IMG/VR virus record: IMGVR_UViG_2675903368_000012
Strand: one strand, 5' to 3'
DNA length: 7,229 bases
From: a virus
Taxonomy: Duplodnaviria > Heunggongvirae > Uroviricota > Caudoviricetes
The notes under the pieces were generated by a model. It worked only from the letters and a program-made list of their open reading frames with translations. It was not told the origin of the DNA and did not search any database. Below, piece after piece: positions 2,926-7,229 of this stretch (within the stretch, counting starts at the first letter, position 1; every line of letters begins with the position of its first letter). The position numbers and the translations under genes are program-made.

Positions 2926-2954
2926 ATAATTCTGACGCGAAAAAAACGTGGCAA
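2926..2954 (-). promoter_or_regulatory. Candidate sigma70 promoter just downstream of the terminator, for the 76 aa / 121 aa / A module
   Basis: Minus strand reads TTGCCA (-35, 5/6 to consensus), a 17 nt spacer, then AATTAT (-10, 4/6 with A2 and T6 present). Predicted start near nt 2919, at the base of the cUUCGg hairpin. Sequence-only call. Confidence 0.3.
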
Positions 2955-2964
2955 TACAGAACGC

Positions 2965-2987
2965 ACAAAAAAACCGCTGGCGCGGTT
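2965..2987 (-). terminator. Rho-independent terminator for minus-strand transcripts leaving the 99 aa gene
   Basis: Read on the minus strand: stem AACCGC / GCGGTT (6 bp, 4 GC pairs) with loop GCCA, followed directly by a run of 7 T. On the plus strand the same hairpin is followed by GTGCG with no T-run, so it is unidirectional. Confidence 0.55.
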
Positions 2988-3109
2988 GTGCGCTTGTGTA
3001 GTCAGCAGGCTGCGAAACCCGGCACCCGTTTTGTGAGGTGCAGCGGAAATGTAACCTGACTGATTGCGGCATGGCAAGCGGTTTTTTTGTGTGTGCATGT
3101 TCTGGTTTC

Positions 3110-4051: not shown

Positions 4052-4290
4052 GCGATATTCCCCAGCTCATACGGTTCAATATGTTCCCCGCATTCTGCGG
4101 CACAGATCAGCTCGGAAAGTTCGTTAAGTGCATCCAGATCATCAGCGTAAAAAGCCACGTCATACAGACTTCGGATTGCTCTGGTCAATGAGTCACGGGC
4201 CGCACGTTCAGCATGAGCGCCTGATACACTTAAGCGAAAATAAAAGCGCTCAAGTGCTTTGTTAATGAGAGTTTTATATTCTTTGCCCAT
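4048..4290 (-). CDS. Hypothetical protein, 80 aa
   Basis: ORF with an AGGG SD-like element 7 nt upstream, starting 11 nt after the stop of the 94 aa gene. No family recognised. Confidence 0.65.
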   Translation of the reverse strand: MGKEYKTLINKALERFYFRLSVSGAHAERAARDSLTRAIRSLYDVAFYADDLDALNELSELICAAECGEHIEPYELGNIA

Positions 4291-4301
4291 CGCAACGCCC
4301 T

Positions 4302-4589
4302 TTAATCTGCTTTCTGAATTTCAGTTTCTGAATCCATACAGATAATTTCGATATAGGGTTTATCGCCATTAACCTGACGAGCCTTTTCAGCTTCGCTAAT
4401 GATTTCGCGTACGGTCTGGTACGGAAGTTCCACGATCAGTCGCGTGCCGTTCAGATAAACGTAAGTGGCTTCGGCGGCTCCGTTTTTCCCCGCCGGAGCC
4501 ACTCCATCAATAGCGGATGCGCGTAATAACAGTTCACCGCGAAAATCAATAAAGCGGATAAATACACCTTGAGTATGGTCTTTAGTCAT
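4302..4589 (-). CDS. Hypothetical protein, 95 aa (internal ATG of the 115 aa track ORF chosen as start)
   Basis: ATG at 4589 is preceded by AGGTG at 7 nt spacing and lies 10 nt after the TAA stop of the 113 aa gene. The longer 4649 start would overlap that gene by 50 nt. Confidence 0.65.
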   Translation of the reverse strand: MTKDHTQGVFIRFIDFRGELLLRASAIDGVAPAGKNGAAEATYVYLNGTRLIVELPYQTVREIISEAEKARQVNGDKPYIEIICMDSETEIQKAD

Positions 4590-5694: not shown

Positions 5695-5823
5695 TGTGGT
5701 AATCTCCCTAATTCGTTCGAATGGCTCAAAATGGCTTATATCGGCTTATTTGAGTGTTTTTATGTTTGTGCCCGATGTGGCATGTTGTGATGGAGGATAT
5801 GCCCGATATGGCATCTTTGTCAA
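5695..5823. promoter_or_regulatory. Repressor/cox divergent switch region with candidate early promoter Pe and operator repeats
   Basis: Direct repeats TGCCCGAT(G/A)TGGCAT at 5769-5783 and 5800-5814. On the minus strand, a perfect TTGACA (5823-5818), an 18 nt spacer and TATCCT (5799-5794). Three 10 bp-phased GGCT units at 5723-5726, 5733-5736 and 5743-5746. Confidence 0.5.
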
Positions 5824-6128
5824 GCATGGGTGAAAAATTTCGCCTGATTCGTGAAGCAGAAGGTATGACCCGCCAGGAGTTTGCGGATTGTGTTGGGCTG
5901 CCTTATGGGACGGTAACTAACTATGAGGTGAGGGGGAAGCAAGTAACAGAGGGTGCCTTACTTAAGGTTACGAAACACCCTAAATTTAAGAAGTATGCTT
6001 ATTGGTTATCAACAGATGAAACGATGCCGGAGGTCGGGCAAATTTCTCCGGCTCTCTCTCTTGATGGTTCCTGCAATTCGGAGGGAGATCGCGTTTCAAC
6101 CGAAACAATCCAAAAATTATCCCGCTGA
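5808..6128 (+). CDS. C: Immunity repressor, P2 C-type, 106 aa
   Basis: Conserved segments GLPYGTVTNYE, KHPKFKKYAYWLSTDE and GQISPALSLDG match my recollection of P2 C (GVPYGTLSYYE ... PQFTKYTLWFMTNQ ... GQIAPALA). GGAGG SD 11 nt upstream of the ATG at 5808. The track ORF's 5754 start is a GTG with no SD. Confidence 0.85.
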   Translation: MASLSSMGEKFRLIREAEGMTRQEFADCVGLPYGTVTNYEVRGKQVTEGALLKVTKHPKFKKYAYWLSTDETMPEVGQISPALSLDGSCNSEGDRVSTETIQKLSR

Positions 6129-6224
6129 GGCCAGAAAACTGGTTAGACCTGCTTTTTGTCTGGTCTGATTATTGCTGGAAAGAGGCTGGAGAAATTGTAG
6201 AGCGGTTCATTGGAGGGCTTCGTA

Positions 6225-7229
6225 ATGTCGATTAAGAAGCTCGAAGATGGTCGTTATTTGCTGGACATCAGGCCGAACGGACGCAAGGGAAAGCGCGTGC
6301 GTAAGGTATTTGACAAAAAATCGGTAGCGGTGGCCACTGAACGCTACATCATGGCGAACGCTGAAAAGCGGAAATATATACAGGGCTACCGTGATCGTCG
6401 AACGCTAAATGATTTGCTTGAGTTGTGGTGGATGTATCACGGCCAGCACAGGCGTAAGGCGGAAGAAGACCGAAAACAACTGCGCAACATAATCAATGAG
6501 CTTGGCGCTGATATGCAGGCTGTGGATCTTGATAAGCTGAAAATTATCGCGTGGCGTTCTCAAAAGATAGCTGATGGATTGAAACCGTCATCTGCTAACA
6601 GGTACATGAATCGGTTATCCGGAATGTTTACCGTGCTGAAAAAAATAGGTCTTTGGGATGCAGAACATCCAGTAAGGGGAATTTCTATTCTTTATGTATC
6701 TCCACGAGAAATGGCGTTCCTGTCACAGAAGGAAGTGGCGCTATTGCTCGATACACTGGAGGGCGACTACTGGCGTGTTGCGCTTTTGTGTTTAAGCACA
6801 GGGGCGCGCTGGAGTGAAGCTTGTAAGCTTCGTGGTGAACAGATAGTTCATAACCGTGTAACGTTTCTTGAAACCAAAAATGGCCGGAAGAGAACAGTAC
6901 CAATTTCGCAGGCAGTTTGTGAGGCGATCAAAACCAGAGAAACAGGCGGCTTGTTTGAGGTGAAGTACCGGGAATTCTGCCTGGCGCTGAAAAGAGTTAA
7001 GCCCGATTTACCAAAAGGCCAGGCTGCACATGTGCTGCGGCATACGTTCGCCAGCCATTTTGTGATGAACGGAGGAAACATTATTGCGCTTCAGAAGATT
7101 CTTGGTCACGCAACCATTCAGCAAACAATGGCATATGCGCATTTTGCACCGGATTACCTGCAGGATGCGGTGGCCCTTAATCCGCTGAAAGGTGGCGTAA
7201 GTGTCCACGCAGTGTCCACGGGGGATTAA
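6225..7229 (+). CDS. int: Tyrosine integrase, P2 Int-like, 334 aa
   Basis: N-terminus MSIKKLEDGRYLLDIRPNGRKGKRVRKVFDKK parallels P2 Int. Catalytic-domain motifs LSTGARWSEA, HVLRHTFASH and LGHATIQQTMAYAHF. GGAGGG SD 7 nt upstream of the ATG at 6225; the track ORF starts at an upstream TTG. Confidence 0.9.
   Translation: MSIKKLEDGRYLLDIRPNGRKGKRVRKVFDKKSVAVATERYIMANAEKRKYIQGYRDRRTLNDLLELWWMYHGQHRRKAEEDRKQLRNIINELGADMQAVDLDKLKIIAWRSQKIADGLKPSSANRYMNRLSGMFTVLKKIGLWDAEHPVRGISILYVSPREMAFLSQKEVALLLDTLEGDYWRVALLCLSTGARWSEACKLRGEQIVHNRVTFLETKNGRKRTVPISQAVCEAIKTRETGGLFEVKYREFCLALKRVKPDLPKGQAAHVLRHTFASHFVMNGGNIIALQKILGHATIQQTMAYAHFAPDYLQDAVALNPLKGGVSVHAVSTGD

Follow-up and report, generated by a model that had tools for sequence, protein, structure and literature searches.

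Between a 99-aa gene and a 76-aa gene on the minus strand of a 7,229-nucleotide stretch of viral DNA (Caudoviricetes; IMG/VR record IMGVR_UViG_2675903368_000012; hereafter the window) lies a gap of 322 bp with a hairpin, a run of T residues and, just beyond, a sequence resembling a bacterial promoter. The window is the early region of a P2-like Escherichia coli prophage. Does the gap end one operon and start another, or do its parts belong to something else? An earlier note took it for a terminator plus a promoter and missed two known RNA genes that are matched there by Rfam. We conclude that the gap is very probably an IsrK-C4 RNA immunity module, of the kind known from P1 immI, P4 immunity and Gifsy-1 isrK.

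The two RNA genes score above their Rfam gathering thresholds and occur in the correct order and on the correct strand (Table 1). The first is an IsrK/seqA-type leader RNA, whose predicted fold consists of two 5′ hairpins plus a terminator; the flagged hairpin and U-run lie within the isrK match and form its 3′ end. The second is a C4/CI-type antisense RNA, and the C4 match opens with AATTAT, the six bases that the earlier note took for a −10 element. IsrK and C4 matches in the same order are found in P4, Gifsy-1, ST64B, mEp460, an Stx2a phage and the Citrobacter Xuanwuvirus phiSM. A search of the gap for tRNA and tmRNA genes found none.

We examined 80 IMG/VR loci that encode the 76-aa protein. 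The module was present in all 80, which comprise 43 distinct intergenic sequences (hereafter variants), and co-variation was counted in an alignment of 38 P88-like sequences. The three helices of the C4 RNA, a closing stem and two hairpins, are fully (100%) paired in all 38; both the closing stem and hairpin 1 carry double changes, and the third pair of the closing stem changes from C-G to U-A in eight sequences. Since the closing stem co-varies from its third base, the functional RNA includes the bases right after AATTAT. The AATTAT leader is itself invariant in the P88-like set and recurs in the C4 loci of P1, Gifsy-1 and lambdoid phages that we examined, whereas P4 has GUCAAU in front of its C4 RNA. 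In the P1 record, mature c4 RNA (48343-48419, 77 nt) starts at the G right after AATTAT. RNase P processing of c4 is established for P1 and P7, and by analogy the 5′ end of C4 in the window is predicted to arise from RNase P cleavage between 2926 and 2925. One locus, L073, carries a 17-nt insertion, ATTCTTTGCTCTCCGGT, in C4 hairpin 2 (aligned near 2891), which resembles a partial duplication with a different b′ type.

Variation in the gap is concentrated in three patches that change together: a1/b1 in the leader, b′/a′ in C4, and a2/b2 downstream. For the pairing of a1/b1 with a′/b′, all alignment cells (100%) are paired, and double changes occur in 10 of the 16 base pairs counted per interaction (147 cells); slid controls reached at most 56% paired. 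For the pairing of a′/b′ with a2/b2, 97.7% of cells are paired, with double changes in 9 of 16 pairs. C4 thus has two exposed patches complementary to the RNA of its own operon, and the pairing reaches a ribosome-binding site, as b2 overlaps AAGGGG (2800-2795), the Shine-Dalgarno sequence that lies 7 nt before the ATG of the 76-aa gene. In the predicted read-through fold, a1/b1 is paired in cis with a′/b′, an arrangement that resembles the inactive "structure A" described for Gifsy-1 by Hershko-Shalev et al.

The patches define specificity types. There are ten distinct (a′, b′) combinations, made from five a types and nine b types, each with matching a1, a2, b1 and b2, and the stability of cognate duplexes exceeds that of non-cognate ones by about 6-7 kcal/mol. 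A second, independent sample yielded further types. That a and b types occur in varied combinations suggests reassortment by recombination. These sets, at least ten in number and naturally matched between antisense and target, are a ready panel for testing the specificity of RNA-based immunity.

The same stretch can also be read as protein. A 205-aa open reading frame (ORF; 3098-2481, minus strand) matches Pfam Phage_ASH (PF10554) over residues 16-109 at 26.9 bits against a gathering threshold of 26; in GenBank PV468777 the stretch carries the label "similar to ash family protein"; and the frame is open in 39 of the 43 variants, a weak test that is not decisive alone. Conservation would then reflect coding constraint on an "Ash" family protein, an explanation we consider extremely improbable. 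Coding constraint does not predict that variation in three short patches should keep RNA pairing. Moreover, the frame is broken in four variants, the start codon is lost in six, and the ORF overlaps the 76-aa gene. Phage_ASH also matches the old P4 "cI" ORF (8168-8584 of the P4 locus, minus strand) at 59.7 bits, yet cI, the immunity factor of P4, is an RNA (PMC4825925, PMC3632133). To judge from these matches, the "Ash protein family" looks like the conceptual translation of conserved RNA genes. As the gap is either unannotated or labelled an Ash-protein remnant at present, an IsrK-C4 module would correct the annotation of a widespread E. coli prophage.

In Stx2a_1447, mEp460 and ST64B (~1640-2800 of each locus), the isrK-C4 module lies between a cII-like gene and the replication gene O, buried in a 1.15-kb ORF annotated "antirepressor" or "Rha", the 5′ part of which is probably non-coding. 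In NZ_CP122685, the RefSeq annotation of the corresponding locus (4214-4537) has no feature in the module, and the locus tags jump from RS07830 to RS07840 exactly there, as if an assigned feature were not displayed.

Table 1. Features of the IsrK-C4 region and of the rest of the window.
Feature	Position	Strand	Remarks
Promoter-like site	3077-3048	-	TTGCCA 3077-3072, 18 nt, TACATT 3053-3048
IsrK/seqA-type leader RNA	3041-2967	-	Rfam RF01394, 64.1 bits (gathering 50), E = 2.4e-12
Leader target site a1	3016-3010	-	
Leader target site b1	3001-2993	-	
Outer helix	2993-2988 with 2966-2961	-	GCGCAC with GUGCGU; predicted; -17.2 kcal/mol with terminator
Intrinsic terminator	2987-2967	-	AACCGC 2987-2982, loop GCCA 2981-2978, GCGGTT 2977-2972, seven T 2973-2967
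Promoter-like element	2954-2926	-	TTGCCA 2954-2949, 17-nt spacer, AATTAT 2931-2926
Second run of seven T	2946-2940	-	20 nt past first run
C4/CI-type antisense RNA	2931-2844	-	Rfam RF01695, 83.2 bits (gathering 45), E = 8.3e-16, full-length
Predicted mature C4 RNA	2925 to ~2847	-	~79 nt; ends placed after annotated P1 c4
C4 closing stem	2925-2910 with 2865-2850	-	16 bp
C4 hairpin 1	2909-2896	-	
C4 hairpin 2	2895-2874	-	loop patch b′ 2887-2879
C4 patch a′	2872-2866	-	single-stranded; C4 3′ end GCCACC
Downstream target a2	2840-2834	-	
Downstream target b2	2806-2798	-	
Integrase gene	6210-7229	+	
C-type repressor gene	5754-6128	+	
cox gene	5694-5407	-	Pfam Phage_Cox
99-aa gene	3409-3110	-	stop codon 3112-3110
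Gap, 99-aa gene to 76-aa gene			322 bp; contains flagged terminator and promoter-like element
76-aa gene	2787-2557	-	ATG at 2787; first gene under C4 target
121-aa gene	2484-2119	-	only match phrog_3237 (family with no assigned function)
Replication endonuclease gene A	2112-1	-	downstream in same transcription path as 76-aa and 121-aa genes

The hairpin AACCGC/GCGGTT with its seven T sits where the earlier note had put it and is T-flanked on the minus strand only; two of the seven T are the last two bases of the stem. Since pattern scans alone show no excess (nine promoter-like sites, with 6.5 ± 2.7 expected from shuffled sequence, and 15 terminator-like sites, with 8.2 ± 3.0 expected), the case for function must rest on other evidence. 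Using a pattern anchored on the C4 5′ end, we collected 90 distinct C4 loci from viral contigs, and in 89 of them a hairpin and U-run stand between a1/b1 and C4. The stems found elsewhere differ in sequence yet are complementary (ACACGC/GCGTGT, ACCGCAG/TTGCGGT and, in P4, GACGCG/CGCGUC). A G+C-rich hairpin followed by a U-tract is therefore kept in relatives, and the proposal of an intrinsic terminator within the early region was borne out. The hairpin has a calculated energy of -8.4 kcal/mol, a modest value that fits a leaky terminator. Contrary to the earlier note, the 99-aa gene does not run directly into the terminator: its stop codon lies about 123 nt upstream, with a conserved promoter-like site between. 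The second run of T, which does exist, follows the first at 20 nt rather than the 18 nt previously given. We rejected it as a second terminator, as it is not conserved (TCTTTTT in more than half of the variants) and no hairpin precedes it.

A further helix is predicted to enclose the terminator. Since this outer helix bridges the terminator and the U-tract, it would form only in read-through RNA. Across lineages, several lambdoid ones included, compensatory pairs support it: GCGTAC/GTACGC, GCGCAT/ATGCGT, GCGGACA/TGTCCG in P1 and CGACA/TGTCG in the Gifsy-1 group. The helix is weak in an SfV-like lambdoid group. The paired run is 5.0 for cognate and 3.3 for non-cognate combinations. It may serve as a processing site or insulate the C4 fold. 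Some lambdoid loci (L093, L104, L117 and relatives) differ locally: there GCUCAUG, which comprises the terminator loop and one further base, the first of the 3′ stem, complements a CAUGAGC in the stretch from the isrK terminator to C4, about 12 nt beyond the U-run, and the two could form a lineage-specific alternative structure.

TTGCCA-17-AATTAT is present where the earlier note had placed it. If the hairpin were a plain terminator that ends the upstream operon, a sigma-70 promoter at 2954-2926 could restart transcription for the 76-aa, 121-aa and A genes. The element matches nine of 12 consensus positions at the optimal 17-nt spacing, AATTAT is invariant, TTGCCA is kept in 28 of the 43 variants, and other lineages have TTGTCA-, GTGTCA- or TTGTCG-like hexamers 16-19 nt upstream of AATTAT, which makes a weak promoter conceivable. 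We nevertheless regard a restart as very unlikely. Promoter-like matches are no commoner in the window than in shuffled sequence, and AATTAT is accounted for as the C4 leader. A transcript initiated about 7 nt past AATTAT would begin inside the closing stem, in which co-variation sets in at the third base, and would yield a truncated C4. The −35 is variable, differing in 15 of 43 variants (TCGCCA in 13, a T-to-C change at the second position; TTGCTA in one and TTGCCG in one), and has no counterpart in P1, whose record is exhaustive in promoter annotation and has no promoter there. In Gifsy-1, a fusion that lacked the isrK promoter and kept the terminator-to-C4 spacer was silent (3 versus 280 Miller units), and deletion of the isrK promoter abolished both downstream transcription and the C4-region RNA (PMC4825925). 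For motif-based reading the case is a warning: what looks like a textbook terminator next to a fair promoter match can mark a seam in processed RNA.

Judged by its conservation, the site at 3077-3048 is a better-supported candidate for an internal promoter, with a start expected at about G3041. The site ends 7 nt before this G, the first base of the isrK match. Its hexamers and spacing are invariant in all 43 variants, and it is kept in 23 of 23 sequences of the second sample, two of which have a diverged spacer with the same hexamers and spacing. It aligns with the annotated P1 promoter P1c4/P51b (TTGACC-17-TATAGT), with TTGACA-17-TATATT in Gifsy-1, with TTGATT-17-TACACT in lambdoid loci and with TTGCCT-18-TATAGT in P4, which we take to be PLE. 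The variants become homologous about 13 nt ahead of the −35, and farther upstream different sequences are joined; thus, the promoter-like site travels with the module. In Citrobacter phage Shae_phiSM, an extra gene for a 184-aa "DNA binding protein" (1826-2377 of its locus) lies between an Ead-like gene and the module, which marks the upstream junction of the module as a site of gene exchange.

A scan of the minus strand from the module to gene A found no other promoter-like or terminator-like site, except for a terminator-like match inside C4, and minus-strand transcription that reaches the 76-aa, 121-aa and A genes must therefore pass through the module. The earlier suggestion that these genes are expressed conditionally is very probably right, but their separate transcription from 2954-2926 is not supported.

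By homology with the known systems, an IsrK-C4 module would operate as follows. The sigma-70-type promoter at 3077-3048 would start transcription near 3041. Most transcripts would stop at 2987-2967, giving a leader RNA of about 75 nt that carries a1 and b1, while some, probably along with early-operon transcripts from upstream, would read through. As in P1, RNase P would cut the read-through RNA after AAUUAU (2926/2925), and trimming near 2847 would yield a C4 RNA of about 79 nt. Patches b′ and a′, which by co-variation pair with a2/b2, would cover the ribosome-binding site of the 76-aa gene and block its translation, and expression of the 121-aa and A genes would fall through polarity or premature termination, by analogy with P1 and P4. 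The same patches pair by co-variation with a1/b1 of the leader, which could act as a decoy that frees the message, like the IsrK of Salmonella. Alternatively, or additionally, the leader may be a termination sensor, the site at which C4 raises termination and limits its own synthesis; Briani et al. reportedly found in 2000 that the P4 terminator t1 is strengthened by pairing of CI RNA with seqA and serves CI autoregulation. The terminator would be a partition point between decoy RNA and repressor-plus-message RNA, and the supposed −10 would be the processing leader of C4.

Findings in Salmonella bear on several of these steps. Some isrK transcripts in Gifsy-1 continue past the terminator and form the message downstream, and translation of the anti-repressor encoded there is activated when IsrK is provided in trans (PMC4825925). 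Both IsrK and STnc1160 are expressed in Gifsy-1 lysogens in all conditions tested (bioRxiv 787010).

Some observations weigh against an IsrK-C4 module or against parts of it. The c4-a1b1 model (RF03163) matches 3054-3002, which overlaps the isrK match, with only 20.9 bits, below its gathering threshold of 46.7, although the functional property of such a site, complementarity of a1/b1 to C4, is present despite the score. The terminator stem never varies in the P88-like set (43 distinct variants; 38-sequence alignment), so that only other lineages support it. The match of the 76-aa protein to the epsilon family described below is modest (32.5 bits). Finally, Hershko-Shalev et al. attributed the action of IsrK to alternative folds of the mRNA, and co-expression of C4-region RNA did not relieve IsrK toxicity in their experiments (PMC4825925). 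Given this last result, the decoy step is not settled.

The overall layout matches that of P4. There, as in the window, a target, a terminator, a CI-type RNA and a second target (in P4, seqA, t1, CI RNA and seqC) lie upstream of an epsilon-family gene and a replication gene; seqA and CI RNA score 60.8 bits as isrK and 74.9 bits as C4, a terminator hairpin and U-run come right after the seqA-type site, and a promoter-like match ends about 7 nt before the leader. The two systems differ in several ways. P4 is a satellite, whereas the window comes from a P2-like phage of the helper type. The epsilon-like gene directly follows the target in the window, while other ORFs intervene in P4. The replication gene encodes an A-type nicking endonuclease rather than the alpha primase-helicase of P4, and the spacer from terminator to C4 is about 41 nt rather than about 107 nt.

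This likeness raises the possibility that the same parts work in the manner ascribed to P4, with C4 mainly causing premature termination, both at 2987-2967 through a1/b1 and near a2/b2. Besides the shared order of leader, terminator, antisense RNA and target, it would fit this mode of action that b1 ends only 5 nt before the terminator stem, and Barquist et al. call such a system the P4 IsrK-C4 immunity system (PMC3632133). We think it possible, though on balance unlikely, that termination is the main effect: as in P1, the position of b2 is directly on the Shine-Dalgarno sequence, and no intrinsic terminator is predicted downstream of a2/b2. In P1 immI, the translation block is the primary event. 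Termination and translation block are not mutually exclusive mechanisms.

P1 immI also resembles the module. Its order, promoters P2c4/P51a and P1c4/P51b, a1, b1, hairpin/U-run, AATTAT, c4, a2, b2, icd and ant, is matched by the window up to the first gene. The P1 terminator stem is nearly identical (ACCGC/GCGGT), the processing leader AATTAT is the same, b2 lies on the ribosome-binding site in both, and specificity types differ among relatives of the window as they do between P1 and P7. Downstream of C4, the window lacks icd and ant and has instead an epsilon-family gene followed by the family-less 121-aa gene. The isrK match in P1 (35.1 bits) is below the gathering threshold, while its C4 and c4-a1b1 matches are above; in the window the isrK match is above. 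To our knowledge, the window system has no C1 operator, unlike P1 immI.

The Gifsy-1 locus, in which IsrK was characterised, likewise has isrK (79 bits), then C4 (69 bits) with an AATTAT leader, and a2/b2-like sites before an anti-repressor gene. Its C4 match covers the orf45/STnc1160 region, and the authors read the C4 region as a 45-codon ORF. Gifsy-1 differs from the window in being a lambdoid prophage in which the locus adjoins a late antiterminator gene and the regulated protein is an AnrP-type anti-repressor. Relatives have also been noted in P1, P7, N15 and some lambdoid prophages (Barquist et al., PMC3632133).

The early regions of P2 and 186 gave no C4 or isrK match. Both have intrinsic terminators in the early operon upstream of A, outside any antisense module, and here the earlier note differs in part from the records. 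It knew of no equivalent internal terminator in P2, but the P2 record annotates a putative rho-independent terminator after B; it put a terminator of 186 after cII, but the 186 record places tR1 after dhr.

What would the module regulate? Profile and pairwise comparison place the 76-aa protein with P4 epsilon in the "derepression protein" family. Its score on Pfam PF25738 ("Derepression protein family") is 32.5 bits (gathering threshold 27), that of P4 epsilon is 170 bits, and BLASTP aligns the 76-aa protein with P4 epsilon at 29% identity over 66 aa (pairwise E = 4e-9). As a tblastn search of the phage collection with the 76-aa protein reached only Xuanwuvirus relatives, the link to epsilon needed the Pfam profile and the pairwise comparison. 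No NCBIfam name applies to the 76-aa or 99-aa protein, and the 121-aa protein has no homology to P4 orf151 and no Pfam or NCBIfam family.

P4 epsilon de-represses P2 by binding the P2 C repressor. One possibility is that P88-like (Xuanwuvirus) phages gate their own epsilon-type anti-repressor together with gene A, and that lifting of C4 repression triggers inactivation of a C repressor, either their own or that of a co-resident P2-like prophage. We offer this tentatively and consider it rather doubtful. If true, a P2-like phage would gain a route to induction that is gated by RNA, as well as a second immunity specificity based on RNA, and the many co-varying types would reflect diversifying selection among competing phages and P4-like satellites that carry the same module. 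P88 was obtained by mitomycin C induction and phiSM was released spontaneously (PMC5285337, PMC6456863). No LexA box was found near the module; the three one-mismatch matches in the window are at chance level.

The type of module is already known. What appears new, in the literature that we searched, is its occurrence in the P88-like (P2-like) group, since we found no description of it in P88-like or Xuanwuvirus phages. Some P2-like helpers would share both the RNA immunity module and an epsilon-family gene with P4 satellites, which bears on the ways in which helpers and satellites exchange control circuits or contest them.

The flagged area shares 99.6% identity with Xuanwuvirus P884B11 and 92-97% with other P88-like phages. 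At least 80% of the window is carried by about 284 of 5,426 complete genomes, and pdxB adjoins the region in E. coli chromosomes. A run of small genes on the minus strand lies between cox and the 99-aa gene. The ORF of gene A (703 aa) ends at the first codon of the window, while the replication endonuclease of RefSeq relatives has 940 aa; similarity of these relatives to the window begins only at position 74, and the 3′ end of gene A may be truncated or recombinant. The best promoter-like match of the window, TTGACA-18-TATCCT (5794-5823, minus strand; 10 of 12 consensus positions), lies just upstream of cox, facing the C-type repressor gene, and is probably the early promoter Pe.

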